IMG/VR virus record: IMGVR_UViG_3300005300_000028
Source of the DNA: a virus
DNA: 28,951 nt
Reading direction: 5' to 3' (one strand)
The notes under the pieces were generated by a model. That model saw only the letters and a program-made list of their open reading frames with translations, searched no databases and was not told where the DNA came from. The translations under genes were made by a program, and so were the position numbers. Positions 9,646 to 28,044 of this stretch are shown piece after piece. Within the stretch, counting starts at the first letter, position 1. Every line of letters starts with the position of its first letter.

Positions 9646-9986
9646 GGTCTCACCTCCAGAACCTCAACTAAAAACTTTGCAACCGCATCGGGACAGCTTG
9701 TTGCTCCATTCGGTCTTAGTTCTGGGTGTGGACATCTGATATGTTTTAGTGTATCGACAATGGCTTCTGGGTCAACACCAGACCTTAATGCAACCGAAAT
9801 AACTCTGCCAAGAGCTTCAGCCCAAGCCCTGATACACTCCCCGGGCTTGTCTGCTGTAATGAACACCTCAAGTGGTCTTTCGTCAAACGTAACGGTTATA
9901 TACAGCTTCTTTCCGCACATCAAGCCAAATTTCCCTGTTACATTCGGTAAAGACTTTGGTCTGAGTTTGGGTCTCACAAGCTCCAT
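9606..9986 (-). CDS. Stand-alone TSCPD domain (C-terminal domain of class II ribonucleotide reductase NrdJ)
   Basis: CGKKLYITV...PLEVFI...EALGRVISVALRSGVDPEAIVDTLKHIRC...TSCPDAVAK. Confidence 0.85.
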   Translation of the reverse strand: MELVRPKLRPKSLPNVTGKFGLMCGKKLYITVTFDERPLEVFITADKPGECIRAWAEALGRVISVALRSGVDPEAIVDTLKHIRCPHPELRPNGATSCPDAVAKFLVEVLEVRPWNSSEIKNSSEE

Positions 9987-10669
9987 AACGTTACCCCCTC
10001 CTCATCAAATTCACACCTAATCTGATATTCACACCAAGAACAGTGAACACCTTTGTTTTTAGGCAGATATCCCGTTTCAATCATCCGTTTCATGCGGTTA
10101 ATCTCTTCTTCAATTTCCGGTTCAAGCTTTTTCGGGATTTCTATCACTTTGTTATCTCTGAGATAAACGAATAATATGCGATTAACTTGATATCCTGCCT
10201 TTTCAAGCAAATAACGATATATATTGCCCTGTCTTATATCATCGAGCTTTAGATACAAGAATTTCCCCGTTTTCCAATCTATAATCGTATTGTTGCCGTA
10301 GAAATCAATAATTCCGCTTAAATGGTCTGTAATCTCAATTCTCTGCTCAACAAATTTCGGCAGATATTCTTCCCATGTGTTTAGTCTCTCTGCTTCAAAT
10401 TTAATGAAATTGTTTAGGATTTTCCTTGTCTGCTGGTCACTGCCAACCTCAACACTGACTCTATTAACTAAAGCCTTGATTTCGTCTACGCTCTTTGGCT
10501 TCCCCTGAAGCCTTGTAAAGTAAAGGTAAATGATGAAGTGAATCTTTTTGCCAAATTCCGCTTCAGGATGCTCTATTTTCAGTCCTTCAATCCCTTCGCT
10601 TAGCCAGTACCATCTCTTTGGGCATTGATAGAATAAGTTCAGCTCTGATGGACTGACCACGGGAGTCAC
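9974..10669 (-). CDS. Cas4/AddB-like PD-(D/E)xK exonuclease with a four-Cys Fe-S staple
   Basis: SPSELN..QCPKRW, GKKIH, GIID...IIDWKTG, QGNIY and CSWCEYQIRC. Confidence 0.8.
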   Translation of the reverse strand: MTPVVSPSELNLFYQCPKRWYWLSEGIEGLKIEHPEAEFGKKIHFIIYLYFTRLQGKPKSVDEIKALVNRVSVEVGSDQQTRKILNNFIKFEAERLNTWEEYLPKFVEQRIEITDHLSGIIDFYGNNTIIDWKTGKFLYLKLDDIRQGNIYRYLLEKAGYQVNRILFVYLRDNKVIEIPKKLEPEIEEEINRMKRMIETGYLPKNKGVHCSWCEYQIRCEFDEEGVTLWSL

Positions 10670-19096: not shown

Positions 19097-19585
19097 TCAT
19101 TCTATTACTTTAAGCGTCGTACCTAACACAAATTGTTCAGCCAAATCGAGTTCACCAAAAGAAATCGCAAGCTGTCTAAGCAGTTCAATCTGCTTTTTGA
19201 TAGTTCTGCGTTCACTGATTTTAGTGGTTTCATTGTATTTTCGCTTTAAGTCGTTGAACTGAAGCTTAAGTTGAAACCTAACTTTGCTTTTCAGTGTTTC
19301 ATCACTGCTCGGTGCGTATTCAAGAATATAGATGTCGTTTCTGACGTTCAGTTCGTTAAAAAGTTTAGTATAATGTTCAACGAGTCTCTTTGCCCTGTCA
19401 TATTGCTTTGCCGGAAGAACGTAGACCGAATAGTTTATCCTTGTGCCCATGCTTTTGAGTTCATTGACGAAATTGTTAATTAGTCTGTTCCATTTTGTAA
19501 CCAGTGCTCTTTCGCTTTGGCTGACCAGTTCAAGTGGTGGCGGTCTCTGGATGTCGTACACTATACTAAAATACTTCCCCATCAT
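19097..19585 (-). CDS. Hypothetical protein with a Cas2/PaaX/ChrB-N-like ferredoxin-fold N-terminus and a helical C-terminus
   Basis: IVYDI...GTRINYSVYVLP motifs; likely start 19585. Confidence 0.5.
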   Translation of the reverse strand: MMGKYFSIVYDIQRPPPLELVSQSERALVTKWNRLINNFVNELKSMGTRINYSVYVLPAKQYDRAKRLVEHYTKLFNELNVRNDIYILEYAPSSDETLKSKVRFQLKLQFNDLKRKYNETTKISERRTIKKQIELLRQLAISFGELDLAEQFVLGTTLKVIE

Positions 19586-19605
19586 CTTCTCACCTCCTCC
19601 AAATT

Positions 19606-19995
19606 TCACAACGATTCGGTTACCATCTCGACCTTCAAGATTTGTTTAAACTCTTTAAACCTCAAGTGGCGAGTCATACCAACTGCTTCAAGTATTACAT
19701 CGCTGTCAGGATTGTATTCTGAGCAAAATTCGCCTTTGCAGTTCTGATGAATCGCTTCCATCTCTGCCCAGATCCACACGATGTCTCTGTACTGTGCTAA
19801 TGCTGCAATCATCGATAGCGGCAGCACCACAACAGCATACTGAGCACCAGCCGACTTAATGTCGTAATACACTTCTCTGACGTCTCTGAATGTTTTACTG
19901 ATTTGTATTACTTCTACGTCGTCACCAAGCTTCTTTTTCAATTCGTTGAGTTGAGCCGGTAACGGTTTATGTCTACTAACCCATGCAACTTTCAT
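19606..19995 (-). CDS. Small alpha/beta (Rossmann-like) protein with an N-terminal SRH motif
   Basis: MKVAWVSRHKPLPAQLNEL...AVVVLPLS; family not securely identified. Confidence 0.6.
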   Translation of the reverse strand: MKVAWVSRHKPLPAQLNELKKKLGDDVEVIQISKTFRDVREVYYDIKSAGAQYAVVVLPLSMIAALAQYRDIVWIWAEMEAIHQNCKGEFCSEYNPDSDVILEAVGMTRHLRFKEFKQILKVEMVTESL

Positions 19996-20180: not shown

Positions 20181-22130
20181 TCACCTCACTATTTTGTTAA
20201 TCACGAGATTAAACAACCGTTTCGGCAATTGTTCTATATCCACCACTTCTTCCCACGTCCATTCAGGACCGAACACTCGTCTCATGATTGTCTCTGAAAC
20301 TTCTACATCAATGAACAGCGTGTACACATTAATCCCTGACCTTCTTGCTCTTTCTATTGCTTCTCTTGTCCACTCAAAGAGTATATCGCTCGGATAGCGT
20401 CCGTTTTCAGGTGCCCCATCTGTTATCAGTACAATCATTTTTCTCTGTGCCGTTGATTTGTTAAGCAAGTTTACTGCATAATGAACTGCCGCCCATGTTG
20501 GTGTATAGTTATCTGGAAAAACACTGCAAATCTCCTCTACAGTTTTTAGTTCTCTCAAGTACACTGGATTACCTCCTTTCTCGCAACTGAACGCTATGAC
20601 TCTCATGCTCACGTTTTTGACTTTCTGTAACGCTAAGAACAGCGTTGCACACGCAGACGATGCTATACTGATTTTATCTCCTTCCATTGAACTGCTTGCA
20701 TCAAGAAGAATTACGATATCAAATCCTGTATCTATTTCTTCATTTTCGAATGGGAGTCCGTTTTTGGTTACTTTGTGTTTTATAGTTTCATCGATATCGA
20801 AGTCTAACCCAGTGATGTCGTTGTCAACTCTCATTTTGTTCTTAATTTTGTTAAGTACTTTCGCAATTCTGTCAGCTAAGACAGTATCTGGTTTCGAGTG
20901 TGGCCGAGAGTAGAATTGAATATCGCTACTTGTTCTTACAAATATGTTCTTTTTCTCAAAGTTATTAGGATTTATACTTTTGATTTTCTTCAGTTTCTTC
21001 TCAATTTCTTTCAACATCTTTAGCCCTTCAAGTTCGGCTTCTCCCAAAATCTCTTTGACGGGTTTCTCGAATATACTTTCGTCAATGTCGTTATGATTTG
21101 TAATACTTTCATATTCAGTTTTAGGTAATGATTTGACGCTATCAGGTAAAATAGATTCGAGTTCTTTAGAATCGATATACTCTGACAGCTTTTTTTCTGT
21201 TACTTCTTCTTGGTTCTCTTCCCCTGTCTCTTCTTTTTCTTGATTCTCCTTTTCTGTCTCTTCTTCTTCTTGGTTCTTTTCTCCTGTTCCTTGGTTATTC
21301 TCTCCTCTTTCTTCTTTCTCTCCTGTCTCTTCTTGTTCATCCCTTTGACGTTTTCCATGTTCATTTCCTCTTTCGCTCCCTTGTTCATTTTTAGTGTCTT
21401 CTTCTTGTCCTCCCTCACGCTCTCTTATTTCTTTCGTCACTGTTACTCTTATTTCACTTACTTCTTCTACTTCATCTTGCGTGTCTGATTCACTTCCAAC
21501 TACGACATATACATTACGTTTAAAGTACTTCTCAAGGAGTTTCAATGTCTCCACAGTTGCTACAATACTTGCCTTCCATGACTTCCCCTCGACAGTTTTT
21601 AGTATTTTCAAGAACTCTCTGCAAACCTCCTTGAGCTCTGGGTCACTGATTTCGTTCAAAACATCTGGGTCGCAACGGACAGCATTTAGAATGTCAACTA
21701 TGTGGTCACTGATTATCAGGTCTTTTGCAACAGCCTTTAGTTGCTCTTCTCTGACAACCTTAGAACCACGGTAGAACTTGTTCCACATCCAGTCTACTCG
21801 GTAGTCCTCGATGATATTTAAGAGGTATCTGATGATAATAGATAAGTATGTGTAAGATTCCACGTTTATCTCTTTTCTAATTATGTCTACTGCCTTATCC
21901 ATGTCAGGAGTTTTAAAAACCACATGAGAAATCTCGTGTTCGAACCTCCTATAGTAAAATTTCCAAGGTTCATTACTGTACCTTGGCATTAGAATCTCTG
22001 CACTCTTCTCTTTAATTTCTACTGCAGGTCTATCTACGTCGGTAAACTTTAGCGATACGTATTTTCCACTCAAATGCTCAAAAATTTTCTTTGTCTTGTG
22101 TAAAACTGACCTCTCTATTGACTTCATCAC
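20181..22130 (-). CDS. vWA-domain protein (CobT/NorD-like MoxR partner) with an N-terminal HExxH domain and an acidic linker
   Basis: FEHEISH...NIIEDYRVD, E-rich repeats (EETGEENQE), and MIDAS motifs DASSSM, TPT and ITDG. Confidence 0.85.
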   Translation of the reverse strand: MMKSIERSVLHKTKKIFEHLSGKYVSLKFTDVDRPAVEIKEKSAEILMPRYSNEPWKFYYRRFEHEISHVVFKTPDMDKAVDIIRKEINVESYTYLSIIIRYLLNIIEDYRVDWMWNKFYRGSKVVREEQLKAVAKDLIISDHIVDILNAVRCDPDVLNEISDPELKEVCREFLKILKTVEGKSWKASIVATVETLKLLEKYFKRNVYVVVGSESDTQDEVEEVSEIRVTVTKEIREREGGQEEDTKNEQGSERGNEHGKRQRDEQEETGEKEERGENNQGTGEKNQEEEETEKENQEKEETGEENQEEVTEKKLSEYIDSKELESILPDSVKSLPKTEYESITNHNDIDESIFEKPVKEILGEAELEGLKMLKEIEKKLKKIKSINPNNFEKKNIFVRTSSDIQFYSRPHSKPDTVLADRIAKVLNKIKNKMRVDNDITGLDFDIDETIKHKVTKNGLPFENEEIDTGFDIVILLDASSSMEGDKISIASSACATLFLALQKVKNVSMRVIAFSCEKGGNPVYLRELKTVEEICSVFPDNYTPTWAAVHYAVNLLNKSTAQRKMIVLITDGAPENGRYPSDILFEWTREAIERARRSGINVYTLFIDVEVSETIMRRVFGPEWTWEEVVDIEQLPKRLFNLVINKIVR

Positions 22131-23281
22131 TTCACCTCTACACCGAATATCGAGTAAATTCTTTGAGCAACTGTCTTCTTCTCGTTCTTATCTTCGTAGC
22201 GGTTGACAACCGTGTTCCTCAATGCCATTTTCAGTGCATTCATGTCATCAAGAACGCTTCTGTAGCTGTTGTAGACCTGAGCGAATATTGCTAAGTCTCT
22301 TGTACTCAAAGCATAACTGAGGTCACCTGCGGCATATCCATTTCTGGTTTCAATTGCCAGTGTGATTAACAACTTTCTCAGGTCTTGGTCGAGGTCACTG
22401 ATTTTCTCCAGAATTCTTGACTCCTCATCTTCTAACGGATAATCAATGTAAACTTCTGCAAATCTTGACCTCAAGTCCTCATTGAGTTCATGAACACCAC
22501 CGTAGTACGATGGGTTCATTGTACCGACTATCAAGAGTTTACAACCGTTTTCGAGTCTGTAAATCTTGCCAATCTCTGGTATGTAGACGTGTCTTCGCCA
22601 GTCCAATAGCTGATTGAGCACTTTCTGCATTTGTGGTGTCAGAGCATTAAGTTCCTCGAAAACGAGAATCGCTTTTCCGTACTGGTTCGCCACTGTGATT
22701 GCCACTGGCATTACTCCGAGCTCATATACAACCTCATCACCGACTAACAAGAACCTGCCTACCAAGTCCTGCCTCTTGGTGTTCTCTGAGCAATCGAATT
22801 GAATAATTGGTATGTTGTGCTTTGCGGCAAATGCGGCAATACTCAAGGTTTTTCCGACTCCTTTTGGACCGACAAGCAAGAGTGGAATTCCGCTCTCCAT
22901 GTGAGCTTTGAAAAGCTGTTCTTCGTAGTCTCGTGGTACGTATTCGGGAACACTCTTTGGTAGATAGTCTTCAGCTTTCACTGGTAGAATCTTGATTCCG
23001 TTACTGGCTTTTTCCTCTGGTCTTACGAAGTTGTTAATTGTTTTCTGAGGTATAGTTGCCTGAACCGGAAGTGCCATGTCTCTGTAAATTGTTACTGTTT
23101 TATTGGTTAGGCTCACTTCAACTTTGTACCCCATTTCCTTGAGTTTTTTCCCGACAGTTAGGAGGACGGTGTTGTCGTTTTCTTCCCTGTAGTTGTAGCC
23201 TCTAAATTGCTTGAGCAACTCACGACACTCACTCAACCCTAAAACAGTAACTTTTTCATCTACTAAGTTTTTCCATTCCAT
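22127..23281 (-). CDS. MoxR/CbbQ/NirQ-family AAA+ ATPase
   Basis: GPKGVGKT, DLVG, Walker B variant FEELN, and TMNPSYYGGVHELNEDLRSRF. Confidence 0.88.
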   Translation of the reverse strand: MEWKNLVDEKVTVLGLSECRELLKQFRGYNYREENDNTVLLTVGKKLKEMGYKVEVSLTNKTVTIYRDMALPVQATIPQKTINNFVRPEEKASNGIKILPVKAEDYLPKSVPEYVPRDYEEQLFKAHMESGIPLLLVGPKGVGKTLSIAAFAAKHNIPIIQFDCSENTKRQDLVGRFLLVGDEVVYELGVMPVAITVANQYGKAILVFEELNALTPQMQKVLNQLLDWRRHVYIPEIGKIYRLENGCKLLIVGTMNPSYYGGVHELNEDLRSRFAEVYIDYPLEDEESRILEKISDLDQDLRKLLITLAIETRNGYAAGDLSYALSTRDLAIFAQVYNSYRSVLDDMNALKMALRNTVVNRYEDKNEKKTVAQRIYSIFGVEVK

Positions 23282-23285
23282 TTTA

Positions 23286-23633
23286 TCACCTCCGCAAAAT
23301 TTTTTCTTTATTCTTTATCCTACTAATTGTGAACCATACCGCATTTGCAAATTCTTCAAAGTCCTTGAGGTTTACTGAAACTATACCGTCTTTTACTTGA
23401 AACACTATAACGTTGTTTTCCTCTGCCACATCCCTGAAAAACTCGATAATCTCCTTCGAAGAAGTGTTTTCAAGCTTTTTCCTGAAGTTTTTGACGTTTA
23501 AGGTACAAAAGTCAGACGGATATGCTTCAGAAAACACAGTTTTGTCATAAAGGTCAACATATACTATTACGCTACCGTTCTCTGTCCTGCAAATGAACCT
23601 CACCATTTCAATTTCCATTCTCGTCACCTCCAC
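23286..23633 (-). CDS. Hypothetical protein
   Basis: Co-oriented ORF with an RBS; no motif recognised. Confidence 0.6.
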   Translation of the reverse strand: MEVTRMEIEMVRFICRTENGSVIVYVDLYDKTVFSEAYPSDFCTLNVKNFRKKLENTSSKEIIEFFRDVAEENNVIVFQVKDGIVSVNLKDFEEFANAVWFTISRIKNKEKILRR

Positions 23634-23639: not shown

Positions 23640-24350
23640 TTAAATTTGCACTAAGAAGAATTTAAATTGCAACTGTTTCAGCTCTTCTTCTGACAACACT
23701 GTTCCTTCTGGAAGTCTCTGTAATAGCTGAAATACTATCAGCCTGTCGCCTTTCTTGAGCTTTATCTCTTTCCTCTCTGCTTTGACCTCAGTTCCGAGCA
23801 GTTGCGAAAGTATTTTCGCTGTTGACTCGTGTCCAATAGCACTCTCTACTTCTTCATTAGCGATGATTTGCTTCACCGTATCAACATCAACTACTTTGAT
23901 GCTTATTGTTGCTTCTTCTGTTTCGAGCATGTTCAAGCTGAACGCATTAGCAATGTATGTTTTGCTTGTTTTCTTGTTCTTCTCACGTTCAAAGATTTCA
24001 GCTATCTCTTTGATTGCTCTGATTCTATCTGATTTCGTGTCAAAACTTCCAACGTAGAGCTGTTCAATTTTCTCAGCTGTAACCCTAACCAAAGCGATTC
24101 CTGTCGATGGGTGCTTCGTTGAGCCACTCGCAAATGTTGCAACAACGAACGCCCCAACATGGACTTTGTCATCAATCCATGCTGGGTCTCCTGTCACCCG
24201 AAGAAATCTTCCTTCGAATGCAAACCCATTCTCCTTGCTTACATCGACACGTTCGAGCTCTTTTGCCCAAACTGTTCTTTTGGCCTTGCGTGGTCTCCCT
24301 AAATCAAGGTCTCCTTTCTCAAGTATTACTACATTTCCATCCACCAACAT
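23640..24350 (-). CDS. acrIII-1: Fusion protein: unknown ~129-aa N-terminal domain plus C-terminal DUF1874/AcrIII-1 ring nuclease (about 23640-23963)
   Basis: YIANAFSLNML, SAIGHESTA (catalytic His), ERKEIKL..GD and QRLPEG.VL match STIV B116/SIRV1 gp29. No internal ATG at the domain boundary; likely start 24350. Confidence 0.88.
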   Translation of the reverse strand: MLVDGNVVILEKGDLDLGRPRKAKRTVWAKELERVDVSKENGFAFEGRFLRVTGDPAWIDDKVHVGAFVVATFASGSTKHPSTGIALVRVTAEKIEQLYVGSFDTKSDRIRAIKEIAEIFEREKNKKTSKTYIANAFSLNMLETEEATISIKVVDVDTVKQIIANEEVESAIGHESTAKILSQLLGTEVKAERKEIKLKKGDRLIVFQLLQRLPEGTVLSEEELKQLQFKFFLVQI

Positions 24351-24351
24351 C

Positions 24352-24786
24352 TTACTCACCCCCTAAATAATAAAATGTAACAAAATACGAGTCATAAACT
24401 CTTGTTATCTTCATAGCCCATTTCAGATTCTCAACTCTGACTTCAAAAGTCTTGAATCCATCGTGAACCCCGTATTCTTTAACTGTGGTCTTGGCATCTT
24501 CGTTCACGATTAACTTGCTATCTGTGTTTCTGGTTTCGTCAGGTTCAACAAGATTGAACCTCCACTCGTTGTCAGCTCTGACATAGTCAATCCCCAACAT
24601 TCCGTCCTTTGCGTTCTCCTCAACAAGTCTCAGAAGTTTTTCTGCCTTCTCAAAGTCCATCTTTTTGACTCTCGGCATTCTTTTGAAGAAGTTACTAACT
24701 TCCCTATATGCTCTCTCTCTTCTCATCCTCACTTCTCTCCTGAAAGACTCCAACTCAAAACCAGTTTTTTCCATCCCTGTTTTCAT
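24352..24786 (-). CDS. Hypothetical protein, first gene behind a BRE-TATA promoter
   Basis: ATG at 24786 with a GAGGTGAG RBS. Confidence 0.65.
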   Translation of the reverse strand: MKTGMEKTGFELESFRREVRMRRERAYREVSNFFKRMPRVKKMDFEKAEKLLRLVEENAKDGMLGIDYVRADNEWRFNLVEPDETRNTDSKLIVNEDAKTTVKEYGVHDGFKTFEVRVENLKWAMKITRVYDSYFVTFYYLGGE

Positions 24787-24821
24787 CTTACTCACCTCAA
24801 CATAAGTTAAACCTCAAGGTA

Positions 24822-24853
24822 TATAAACCTTTCGGTTGTCAAAAAGGTTTATA
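24822..24853. promoter_or_regulatory. BRE-TATA promoter (minus strand CGAAAGGTTTATATA) paired with an inverted copy (plus strand AAAGGTTTATAAA)
   Basis: 11-bp inverted repeat TATAAACCTTT (24822-24832) / AAAGGTTTATA (24843-24853); same core as the repeats at 28886-28924. Confidence 0.7.
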
Positions 24854-26519
24854 AATTGGATAATAGAGTTCTTTGCACTTTCTTTTTACCTTTCTTCTTC
24901 TCGAGGTGCTCCATTTTATTTCTGTTGAACTCAGAAGAATACTCTCTTATCATGGACTCGTACTTCTTGGCGAACTTCCTTGCAATTTCGAAAGGTGCTG
25001 AAGATATATACTGAATCACTTGAGGATAAGTATCGAGCCTATATTCTGACTTCCTTTTTCCATTATTGACATATTCCTTTATTTTTTTGTCAAGCGAAGA
25101 CAGTAGCTCGACAAACGATAACTTAGGTTTTGGTTCTGGCTCATCACTTTTCTTGAACACGAACACGAAATCGTAAGGCATTGGGTCTTTCTGCTCTACA
25201 TGGAACGAAATTTTGTAGTTGTAAACCGGTTGACGTAATACGTCTACGTGTTTGAAACCGGCTCTCCTTAGTGCCAAGACGAAAGCCGCCATGACATTCA
25301 TGTCTCCAATGTTGAACGTCGATATAAGGTGACCTCCATGTTTCAACACTCTGAAACACTCTCTGAAAACCTGATATAGTCCGTCTTCATATTCTCTAAG
25401 CCCAATTCTTCTTGTGCTGTTGATAGAAATCTCTGTTTTTGGTGCAGACAGGCCAAGCCAGACTAAGTAGAAATCTGAGAGTTCGGCATACTGTATAATG
25501 TCGCCATAAGGTGGGTCTGTTATAACTGCGTCTACACTTTCATCAGGAATGAAAGATAAGTCTCTTGAGTCAGCTTGAACCACCATGTAACTTGCGTCTT
25601 TTTGCAACTGGCTGAAGTCAGAAGCCTCTTTGGCATAACTACCGATTTTACTGTTGGTGTATGTCTTGCCTCTGATTACTTTGTCTACTCTCCTGCAGAA
25701 AACTTCCCACAAGTTGTTCTCTGTATAGTCTTTAGCAACCCAGTATGTGTTGAGTGTCCAGTCCATTAATTTAGTTTCACCTCCTTTGAGATGTTTGGAC
25801 ATTTTTGAAGACCATTCGAGCATTGAACTGAATGTGAACATCATGAAATCCCTGATTTTGTCGTCTTGAATTTGTGTGATTGCGTCTCTGATATGACTTA
25901 ACATTATCAGACTCCTTGGACTTATAAGCTCATGGAAATATCTGAAACCTTTCTGAATTAGTCTGTTTGTCGTGTCTCCTTCCGGTATTTGAACAACAGG
26001 GTACCACTTAGGTGGAATGTCAGGAACTTTTTCGAACTCCTCTAAACCTGATTCAAGGAAAATCTTTGAGTTACAACTTTTACAGTATATAAAAGCTAAG
26101 AACGGTCTATCATCAGCCAAATATCTTCTGATGTACCTGACCATAGTATTAGAACCACACTCTGGGCATTTGGTTCCGTATAGTTCCCATGCGAGTGGCT
26201 CTAACTGAGTTTTTAGTTGGTTGAACACCTCCCGATATGCGTAAATGTTCAACGGTTCAACTTCTTTTTTCATAACCATGCACGCAAGAGGGTTCAGGTC
26301 AACAGCAACAACTTTCCTCCTCAGGATAAGACCTTCAATCAGTGTAGTACCACCGCCAGCAAATGGGTCTAAAATTATGTCTCCGGGTTCTGTGAACACT
26401 TGAATTATTTTACTGAACACTTTCCATGGCCTCCGAGCCCAGTACTTGTGCATAAAGTAGACAGGAGTATACGCTGTTGTCTCTAAAATACCTAACCCCA
26501 ACATATTACTAGTAACCAT
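24849..26519 (-). CDS. Amino (N6-A or N4-C) DNA methyltransferase with an internal Zn ribbon (COG1743-like)
   Basis: HKYWARRP, motif I DPFAGGGT, CPEC...CKSC and motif IV TDPPY. Likely start 26519 or 26504; the track extension to 26654 overlaps the upstream gene. Confidence 0.88.
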   Translation of the reverse strand: MVTSNMLGLGILETTAYTPVYFMHKYWARRPWKVFSKIIQVFTEPGDIILDPFAGGGTTLIEGLILRRKVVAVDLNPLACMVMKKEVEPLNIYAYREVFNQLKTQLEPLAWELYGTKCPECGSNTMVRYIRRYLADDRPFLAFIYCKSCNSKIFLESGLEEFEKVPDIPPKWYPVVQIPEGDTTNRLIQKGFRYFHELISPRSLIMLSHIRDAITQIQDDKIRDFMMFTFSSMLEWSSKMSKHLKGGETKLMDWTLNTYWVAKDYTENNLWEVFCRRVDKVIRGKTYTNSKIGSYAKEASDFSQLQKDASYMVVQADSRDLSFIPDESVDAVITDPPYGDIIQYAELSDFYLVWLGLSAPKTEISINSTRRIGLREYEDGLYQVFRECFRVLKHGGHLISTFNIGDMNVMAAFVLALRRAGFKHVDVLRQPVYNYKISFHVEQKDPMPYDFVFVFKKSDEPEPKPKLSFVELLSSLDKKIKEYVNNGKRKSEYRLDTYPQVIQYISSAPFEIARKFAKKYESMIREYSSEFNRNKMEHLEKKKGKKKVQRTLLSNL

Positions 26520-26559
26520 ATTACTACATAAAAACTTTTTGTAGAAAAAATGTAAAGAA

Positions 26560-26817
26560 TTACTTAAAGTAAATCCTCCACTGCACACCAAACAGCTCAA
26601 ACTCTGGTTTCCTGACCTCCAAGAACCATTGCATCGACAGTCTCCTGCCATCACTTGGTTTCAGTTTAAAAACGACTCTGTCTTCTGTCCTTTCAAGAAC
26701 TCTGTCTATCTCCATTCTCTCCCTTCTCAGCCTCCTTGATATTCCATAGATTGTCTCATCACTGACCCAATCAGGTAAGTTCATCAGTGCTAAAGACACA
26801 AAGTCAAAGTTTACCAT
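26560..26817 (-). CDS. Small hypothetical protein
   Basis: GAGGTG RBS before the ATG at 26817. Confidence 0.6.
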   Translation of the reverse strand: MVNFDFVSLALMNLPDWVSDETIYGISRRLRRERMEIDRVLERTEDRVVFKLKPSDGRRLSMQWFLEVRKPEFELFGVQWRIYFK

Positions 26818-27702: not shown

Positions 27703-28044
27703 TTACATTACTTCACCAACAACAGGTTCGACCACCAAAAACTTGTACGGTAGCTGTTTCAACTCCTCTTCTGTCAGGATTTTCCCCTCAGGAAGCCTTT
27801 GCATAAGTTGGAAGACAATGAGTTTGTCGCCGTACTCTATCTTCACCTCAGTTCTGTTCATTGGAACCTCAACTCCAAGCAACTGGCTTAACAACTTTGC
27901 TGTGGCCTCATGACCAACGGCACTCACGAACCCTTTAGATATCATCCTCTTTATCCACTTAATGTCCTCTGGATATATCAAAATCAATTCTCTCTCATGC
28001 CTCAGCATATTTAAGCTAAATGAATTAGAGATGTACACTGTCAT
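27703..28044 (-). CDS. acrIII-1: Stand-alone DUF1874/AcrIII-1 ring nuclease (anti-CRISPR, type III)
   Basis: YISNSFSLNML, SAVGHEATA, NRTEVKI..GD and QRLPEGKIL; ATG at 28044 with a GGAGGTGAGGAGA RBS. Confidence 0.92.
   Translation of the reverse strand: MTVYISNSFSLNMLRHERELILIYPEDIKWIKRMISKGFVSAVGHEATAKLLSQLLGVEVPMNRTEVKIEYGDKLIVFQLMQRLPEGKILTEEELKQLPYKFLVVEPVVGEVM

Follow-up and report, generated by a model that had tools for sequence, protein, structure and literature searches.

An AcrIII-1 ring-nuclease domain fused in frame to a module of a mostly viral protein family in a hot-spring archaeal mobile element or virus

Within IMG/VR virus record IMGVR_UViG_3300005300_000028, a stretch of 28,951 nucleotides that we analyzed as a whole and refer to here as the window, a gene on the minus strand at 23640..24350 joins an AcrIII-1 ring nuclease to a second, N-terminal domain. 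The two modules are fused in frame into one polypeptide, and each is conserved and under selection. By sequence criteria, the C-terminal module (residues 129-236; 23643..23966, minus strand) is an AcrIII-1/DUF1874 ring-nuclease domain, and the N-terminal module (residues 1-128) is a member of a separate protein family that occurs mostly in virus contigs. These findings suggest that an archaeal virus or mobile element from hot springs encodes an accessory protein with two modules, in which a dimeric ring nuclease is probably combined with an autonomous binding module that either supplies a second function or tethers the nuclease.

An initial annotation of the gene, made from its sequence alone, had assigned the C-terminal half to AcrIII-1, and this assignment was upheld. 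Residues 129-236 matched PF08960 (STIV_B116-like, DUF1874) over model positions 2-100 of 101 with an E value of 3.9e-28 and 98 bits, against a curated cut-off of 26 bits for this model, and also matched phrog_5063 (E 3.7e-35). The matching solved structures were AFV3-109 (E 1.2e-19), SIRV1 gp29 (2x4i, 7.5e-18; 6scf, 2e-16), and STIV B116 (1.1e-15), with a weak match to the structure of a Csx1-Crn2 fusion (E 5e-5). SIRV1 gp29 degrades cyclic tetra-adenylate (cA4), with H47 as the general acid and with R85, R66, N8, S11, T50, and Q81 contacting cA4 (10.1101/778746). Alignment to the gp29 sequence from NC_004087 placed gp29 N8, S11, N13, H47, S49, and T50 at N135, S138, N140, H174, S176, and T177 and gp29 R66, I69, Q81, R85, E88, and L92 at R193, I196, Q208, R212, E215, and L219, with the codon of the catalytic His174 at 23829-23831. 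The set of cA4-contacting residues is complete and includes the catalytic His and the Arg/Arg/Glu positions (gp29 H47/R66/R85/E88) that had been noted at the outset as retained. From this homology, we infer that the fused protein would cleave cA4 to A2>P.

Dimer modeling, which had been proposed when the gene was first noted, predicted a homodimer that forms through the AcrIII-1 domain. With the composite alignment, the prediction supported binding with a score of 0.64, compared with 0.00 for the best of three controls; among proteins of known structure, 20 of 30 solved as pairs of one chain attained the mark applied to this score, as did 1 of 23 single chains. At least 96% of contacts were shared between runs, and the partner predicted local distance difference test (pLDDT) score was at least 86. 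All confident contacts were within the AcrIII-1 domain (residues 136-153, 206, 208, 232, and 234), so that the predicted interface leaves the N-terminal domains out. Because AcrIII-1 dimers have already been solved, the score may reflect likeness to, or memory of, those structures.

The coordinates first given for the gene were borne out by the length and start of its relatives. An open frame on the minus strand spans 23640..24359 and would hold 239 codons with a GTG start, whereas translation from the ATG at 24350 gives 236 codons followed by a TAA stop codon at 23640-23642. All five close relatives in a collection of 5.8 billion proteins are 236 amino acids long, with an N terminus of MLVDG or MIVDG whose Met matches the ATG at 24350. 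Inspection of the sequence also revealed a Shine-Dalgarno-like GGGGGTGA 5 nucleotides upstream of this ATG, and a TAA at 24352-24354 ends the upstream gene just before it. Considering the Met of the relatives, the Shine-Dalgarno-like site, and the upstream TAA together, we regard the ATG at 24350 as the likely start of the fused gene. The translation start region GGTGAGTAAGATG (24348..24360, minus strand) thus comprises the Shine-Dalgarno-like GGTGA, the TAA of the upstream gene, and the ATG. At the junction between the N-terminal domain and strand beta-1 of the AcrIII-1 domain, inspection found neither an in-frame start codon nor a GGAGG-like or Shine-Dalgarno-like site. Past the junction, TTG and ATG first occur in frame inside the conserved NAFSLNML motif, in agreement with the initial reading of one continuous frame without an ATG or a ribosome-binding site between the domains.

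We found the fusion in seven metagenomic variants with N-terminal domain identities of 66 to 96% and on at least two element backbones. Five homologous proteins (P0002-P0006) share the fused architecture, with N-terminal domains that are 73 to 96% identical, and the fused contigs L109-L114, from three hot-spring metagenomes, include one further variant that is 70% identical. On one backbone (contigs L036 and L037), MoxR and VWA genes lie downstream and an integrase lies upstream in a window-like arrangement; the other backbone (L038) carries a Prim-Pol/D5 replication protein. A short contig from Great Boiling Spring (L042; JGI sample 2058419004) encodes both domains at 66% identity with a +1 shift in the linker (~897-935). 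This shift is most likely a sequencing error, but L042 may represent a natural split form. Apart from L042, the same continuous frame was present in the independent contigs, which excludes the stop or frameshift that might have been hidden between the domains. Pairwise Nei-Gojobori ratios of nonsynonymous to synonymous substitution (dN/dS), calculated with dS ranging from 0.4 to saturation, were 0.10 to 0.13 for the N-terminal core, 0.07 to 0.17 for the AcrIII-1 domain, and 0.05 to 0.15 for the whole gene. The linker helix is nearly invariant among fused variants, being the same in the window and L036 and showing three nonsynonymous differences from L038. The low dN/dS in each half therefore supports both halves being functional as one polypeptide, and the independent contigs together with these ratios rule out a sequencing or assembly artifact as the cause of the fusion.

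The N-terminal module consists of a beta-rich core (residues 1-102; 24045..24350, minus strand) and a long alpha-helix (residues 106-128; 23967..24035, minus strand) that closes the domain and leads straight into strand beta-1 of AcrIII-1. An AlphaFold2 model of this domain, built with the family alignment, had a pLDDT of 94 and a predicted template modeling score of 0.87 and contained ten short strands followed by the helix (109-131 in the numbering of the 239-residue frame), consistent with the beta-rich character first noted; a single-sequence model of the whole protein was unusable (pLDDT 35). Three motifs mark the core, LGRPRK, WAKELERVDVSKENGFAFEGRFL, and GSTKHP. The motifs quoted in the initial annotation occupy, in our alignment, the best-conserved columns of a genuine family, which has the characteristic motifs WAK..VD..K.NGYAFEG.F and GSWKHP and the core pattern L-G-x-x-R-K; W-A-K-x-L-x-x-V-D-x-x-K-x-N-G-[YF]-A-F-E-G-x-[FW]; G-S-[WT]-[KR]-[HY]-P. 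G42, A44, and G76 are invariant, and W28, K30, F45, G47, and S77 are at least 90% conserved. In the 236-residue numbering, the fused N-terminal domain carries the family signature of W28, K30, N41-G42-[YF]-A-F-x-G47, and G76-S77. The description of the domain as basic held only in part: the core is mildly basic (pI 8.3, net charge +1), as is the helix (net +3), and core charge is inconsistent over the family (pI 4.7 to 10.1, median 8.0).

Conserved positions in the family are chiefly Gly, aromatic, and Ala residues, together with K22, K30, D36, K39, N41, S77, and K79, a pattern that appears to fit a binding module better than an enzyme. We considered GSTKHP as a catalytic site and rejected it; its His (His80) is Tyr or Asn in one third of members. 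Neither Pfam, PHROG, nor PADLOC assigned a family to any of 39 members (the N-terminal domain and 38 relatives), the scattered coiled-coil rows coming from their tails. Foldseek searches of the PDB and BFVD gave no relative of the N-terminal domain at E ≤ 0.001, and the ESM Atlas gave no usable match for this domain or for its relative P0011. A search of PDB sequences with the family profile matched 59 residues of the 'lipoprotein' 7RAG (E 0.0015), which we attribute to chance; the fold searches did not confirm it.

Searched on its own, as had been suggested, the N-terminal domain proved to be autonomous, defining a family of mostly stand-alone proteins encoded in virus contigs. HMMER with residues 1-132 against 1.84 billion cluster representatives recovered 46 proteins at a threshold of E ≤ 0.001. 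The nonfused members are mostly stand-alone proteins of 130 to 190 amino acids, and the nearest of them, P0007 (159 amino acids, 62% identity), aligns with residues 1-128 over the whole core (E values to 1.7e-39). Relatives diverge after the long helix, where variable C-terminal tails replace AcrIII-1. A short helical motif closes many of these tails (by eye, ..L..L...YG.E.V...L..L or ..LIAELRRRGY...), several relatives have coiled coils, two tails are very basic (net +24 and +25), and the C terminus of P0039 resembles, by eye, an excisionase-type helix-turn-helix (HTH). A few members are long (339, 603, 623, 798, and 1095 amino acids), and P0051 carries the domain as a tandem pair. In P0030, P0031, P0035, and P0037 (603 to 1095 amino acids), the domain is embedded among acidic, Pro-rich linkers. 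A search aimed at longer fused forms yielded only P0035, and no Pfam domain was found in P0008, P0028, P0030, P0031, P0035, P0037, P0039, or P0051.

The family spans archaeal and bacterial virus contigs, with 31 loci in IMG/VR and 57 in JGI metagenomes, and only six hot-spring contigs carry the fused form. Among 185,579 species genomes, the family motif occurred in three (a Methanobacteriaceae metagenome-assembled genome [MAG], a Thiohalocapsa MAG, and Nocardia), and the full-length fused protein had zero matches. Searches of 50,697 deposited phages by tblastn with the N-terminal domain, P0040, and P0043 returned only a marginal match in Microcystis phage Mvi-JY20 (E 5e-4). The fusion is unusual: viewed from the other half of the protein, the 60 DUF1874 loci in IMG/VR included none with this N-terminal domain; nearly all encode stand-alone proteins of 105 to 130 amino acids, and a handful have possible extensions of 55 to 120 amino acids of other kinds.

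The window encodes a second, stand-alone AcrIII-1 paralogue (27703..28044, minus strand; PF08960, E 4.9e-27) 3.4 kb upstream of the fused gene. Its sequence shares 57% identity with the fused domain, retains the active site except for Ala at the position of gp29 S49, and is 82% identical to L048, which is an IMG/VR contig originating in one of the same hot-spring samples. A maximum-likelihood tree of 43 DUF1874 domains placed the fused domains in one clade (support 100/96) that was sister, with moderate support (94/76), to the stand-alone copy of the window plus L048, and both groups fell inside an archaeal-virus clade that includes the SIRV proteins (97/91). The simplest history is that the acrIII-1 gene of this element group was duplicated or exchanged and that a copy replaced the variable tail of an N-domain gene.

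Together, these results suggest the following model. The AcrIII-1 module would dimerize by its own domain and cleave cA4 to A2>P at the interface, and the removal of cA4 would shut off cA4-activated type III CRISPR (CARF) effectors. The N-terminal module would be an autonomous small fold, a beta-rich core and a long helix, taken from a family whose core bears interchangeable tails (short helical, coiled-coil, very basic, or HTH-like) or very large regions, and in one hot-spring lineage a copy of the element group's acrIII-1 would have taken the place of the tail. The dimer would then display two N-terminal modules outside its interface, each of which may bind an anionic ligand or a macromolecule of the host or virus and so either add a second, cA4-independent function or tether the nuclease. 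We suggest a binding role from the distribution and conservation of the family. We take its job to be cA4 independent because the family mostly occurs without a ring nuclease and because its conserved residues are mainly structural with a few basic or polar ones; a need for the N-terminal module in catalysis is unlikely.

Several considerations weigh against this interpretation. Both cA4 cleavage and an anti-CRISPR use of the fused protein are suggested by homology, and a cA4-signaling type III system in the host is presumed. In addition, the native anti-CRISPR role of AcrIII-1 is disputed: SIRV2 gp37 is a middle or late protein that showed no anti-CRISPR effect in the course of infection; its binding partner is instead a lysine methyltransferase of the host (10.1101/2023.01.10.523387). 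The N-terminal domains may also make contacts in the dimer, since the model is simply not confident about them.

The closest alternative to a binding module with a second function or a tethering role, with which it partly overlaps, is that the N-terminal domain is itself an inhibitor or a sponge directed at another defense system or nucleotide signal, making the fusion a two-in-one anti-defense protein. We consider this alternative possible but doubtful. It draws on the genomic position of the fused gene: the surrounding run consists of small orphan genes, two acrIII-1 genes, and, two genes upstream, an N6/N4 DNA methyltransferase (601 amino acids; 24849-26654, minus strand). Stand-alone relatives in virus contigs likewise sit amid small open reading frames (ORFs), and DNA methylases were the commonest annotated neighbors among 120 proteins of at least 110 amino acids encoded within four genes of a homologue at 31 loci (N6_N4_Mtase, 3; C5 DNA_methylase, 2). 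NlpC/P60 was found three times, and SNF2/ResIII helicases and terminase parts were also present; all-against-all BLASTP detected no neighbor family recurring across the IMG/VR loci. Furthermore, K22, K30, K39, N41, S77, and K79 could line an anion-binding site.

Somewhat less probable, in our judgment, is a targeting role, in which the N-terminal domain would dock the nuclease on the Cas10 complex or on a cA4-activated CARF effector so that cA4 is destroyed where it is made or used. Maintenance of the fusion by selection in both of its parts, the presence in one element of a free AcrIII-1 beside the fused one, suggestive of a division of labor, and the availability for binding of two N-terminal modules outside the predicted dimer interface are all consistent with such docking. 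A module dedicated to type III systems would, however, be expected to track ring nucleases more often. Among 29 virus records with the N-terminal domain, 28 lack DUF1874, and the one that encodes it (L012) does so in a separate gene 1.3 kb away; Csx3 occurred in none of the 29, although that search was weak and control genomes gave no signal either. The family also occurs in very different phage-like contigs and with many unrelated tails. The rarity of AcrIII-1 in these records and the diversity of the tails therefore speak against a function specific to cA4 or Cas10 and favor an independent function or a general tether. The initial annotation stands in its central claim, an intact AcrIII-1 fused in frame to an extra domain without a named family. 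Of the roles that it proposed for that domain, Cas10 targeting, nucleic-acid binding, or a second anti-defense activity, each may apply.

A purely regulatory or assembly role, in which the N-terminal domain has no target of its own and only modulates the nuclease by stabilizing it against heat, assembling it into larger oligomers, or gating its cA4 site, is very improbable: coiled-coil tails in several stand-alone relatives suggest that oligomeric state matters, and no segment of the fused variants is more conserved than the linker helix, but the family is widespread without an attached enzyme, the predicted dimer forms via AcrIII-1 alone, and the free AcrIII-1 of hyperthermophile viruses works without such a domain (10.1101/778746).

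Compared with AcrIII-1 proteins of known structure (SIRV1 gp29, 2X4I/6SCF; STIV B116, 2J85; AFV3-109, 2J6B), the fused protein has a C-terminal 108 amino acids that are 41% identical to gp29, all cA4-contacting and catalytic residues, the same predicted dimer interface, and a gene located in an archaeal mobile element. Whereas these known members are stand-alone proteins of ~105 to 125 amino acids, the protein described here carries a folded 128-residue N-terminal module of another family. The family with the WAK, NGYAFEG, and GSWKHP motifs (P0007-P0050) differs in turn by having other tails or by being embedded in proteins of 600 to 1100 amino acids, the AcrIII-1 end being found only in the hot-spring clade. 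The Csx1-Crn2 protein of Marinitoga (PDB 8Y6Z/8Y7F/8Y7G), a fusion reportedly described by Samolygo et al. in 2020, also has DUF1874 at the C terminus of a longer protein. In contrast to the mobile-element gene analyzed here, its partner domain is a cellular CARF-HEPN effector in a CRISPR locus, and the fusion is a self-limiting RNase. Pfam detected neither CARF nor HEPN in the fused protein of the window, where a PADLOC CARF3 row at residues 104-154 was marginal (E 0.0026), and we ruled out a fusion of the Csx1-Crn2 type since neither domain was found N-terminal to DUF1874. This cellular Csx1-Crn2 was the sole DUF1874 fusion that we found in the literature (10.1101/778746; 10.1101/2024.09.24.614671).

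All genes of the window are on the minus strand. Directly upstream of the fused gene is a small gene of no known family (24352..24786, minus strand; 144 amino acids from its ATG), the first gene after a B recognition element (BRE)/TATA-like AAAGGTTTATATA at ~24812-24826 (minus strand) that separates it from the methyltransferase gene; L036 has a 98% identical copy of this orphan upstream of its own fused gene. The 13-mer GGTGAGTAAGATG at the start of the fused gene recurs identically at the start of the 144-residue orphan (24784-24796, minus strand), and an AT-rich, TATA-like tract lies ~29 to 33 nucleotides upstream of the ATG in both of these consecutive genes. With the 13-mer and the TATA-like tract at both starts, each gene may have its own promoter and a short leader. 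We also observed that the two methylase halves of the N6/N4 DNA methyltransferase flank an insert that bears a TFIIS-type zinc ribbon (residues 162-196).

Downstream of the fused gene, after a T-run, is another small gene (23286..23618, minus strand; 110 amino acids from its ATG), a member of a family that we call orf115. Searches of Pfam, PDB, and PADLOC gave no match for orf115, and IMG/VR contained no relatives. The family recurs beside the N-terminal domain: it follows the fused gene directly or at a short distance in the window, L038 (10375-10713), L109 (1539-1934), L111 (2468-2863), and L114 (877-1362), and in a different archaeal element it lies directly upstream (L043, 7570-7908) of the stand-alone N-domain homologue P0027 (39% identical). 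L036 lacks orf115. At most, orf115 is a candidate partner of the N-terminal domain.

Beyond orf115 are genes for a MoxR-type AAA+ protein (22127-23281, minus strand) and a VWA protein of 649 amino acids with a long acidic Glu/Lys-rich insert (20181-22130, minus strand). This pair is kept in L036 (9018-12204) at 73% and 66% identity. Elsewhere in the window are genes for PolB, RFC, a primase, an XPF-like nuclease, a Cas4-like nuclease, a ParA/Mrp ATPase, and a UbiA/GGR pair; PolB is only 28% identical to its nearest relatives, which are from haloarchaeal tailed viruses. The window contains no cas10, csm, or cmr genes, and the fused gene is located on a virus or mobile element outside a type III CRISPR locus, with an integrase adjoining it in L036. 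A 170-residue ORF at 19097-19609 (minus strand) resembles Cas2 at a borderline level (PF09827; 23.6 bits, with the cut-off at 23.8), and the corresponding L036 gene (13681-14160) gave a faint match. The Cas4-like PD-(D/E)XK nuclease is at 9974-10669, and no other cas genes besides it were in view.

A broader proposal is that the N-terminal domain family as a whole represents a widespread class of viral counter-defense or host-takeover proteins, either binders or sponges of nucleotide signals or inhibitors of a conserved host factor. We put this forward tentatively and judge it unlikely at present. The fusion to AcrIII-1 and the co-traveling orf115 would mark the family as part of an anti-signaling toolkit, and if the proposal is true, the ~50 clusters of stand-alone proteins from viruses of archaea and bacteria would all represent unrecognized anti-defense genes.

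Of the viral ring nucleases, AcrIII-1 is the best known, and it has been portrayed as a minimal dimer that stands alone. The selected fusion shows that viruses also build AcrIII-1 into composite proteins. The enzyme half is ordinary, and the value of the finding is in the N-terminal domain family and in the presence of a free and a fused copy in one element. For this previously unstudied family, which has a confident fold, no structural relative found, no Pfam entry, and a near absence from cultured phages, the fusion offers a first functional context through guilt by association with a ring nuclease and brings the family within reach of biochemistry. For AcrIII-1, the free and fused forms within a single element provide a natural comparison that bears on the dispute over its native anti-CRISPR role.

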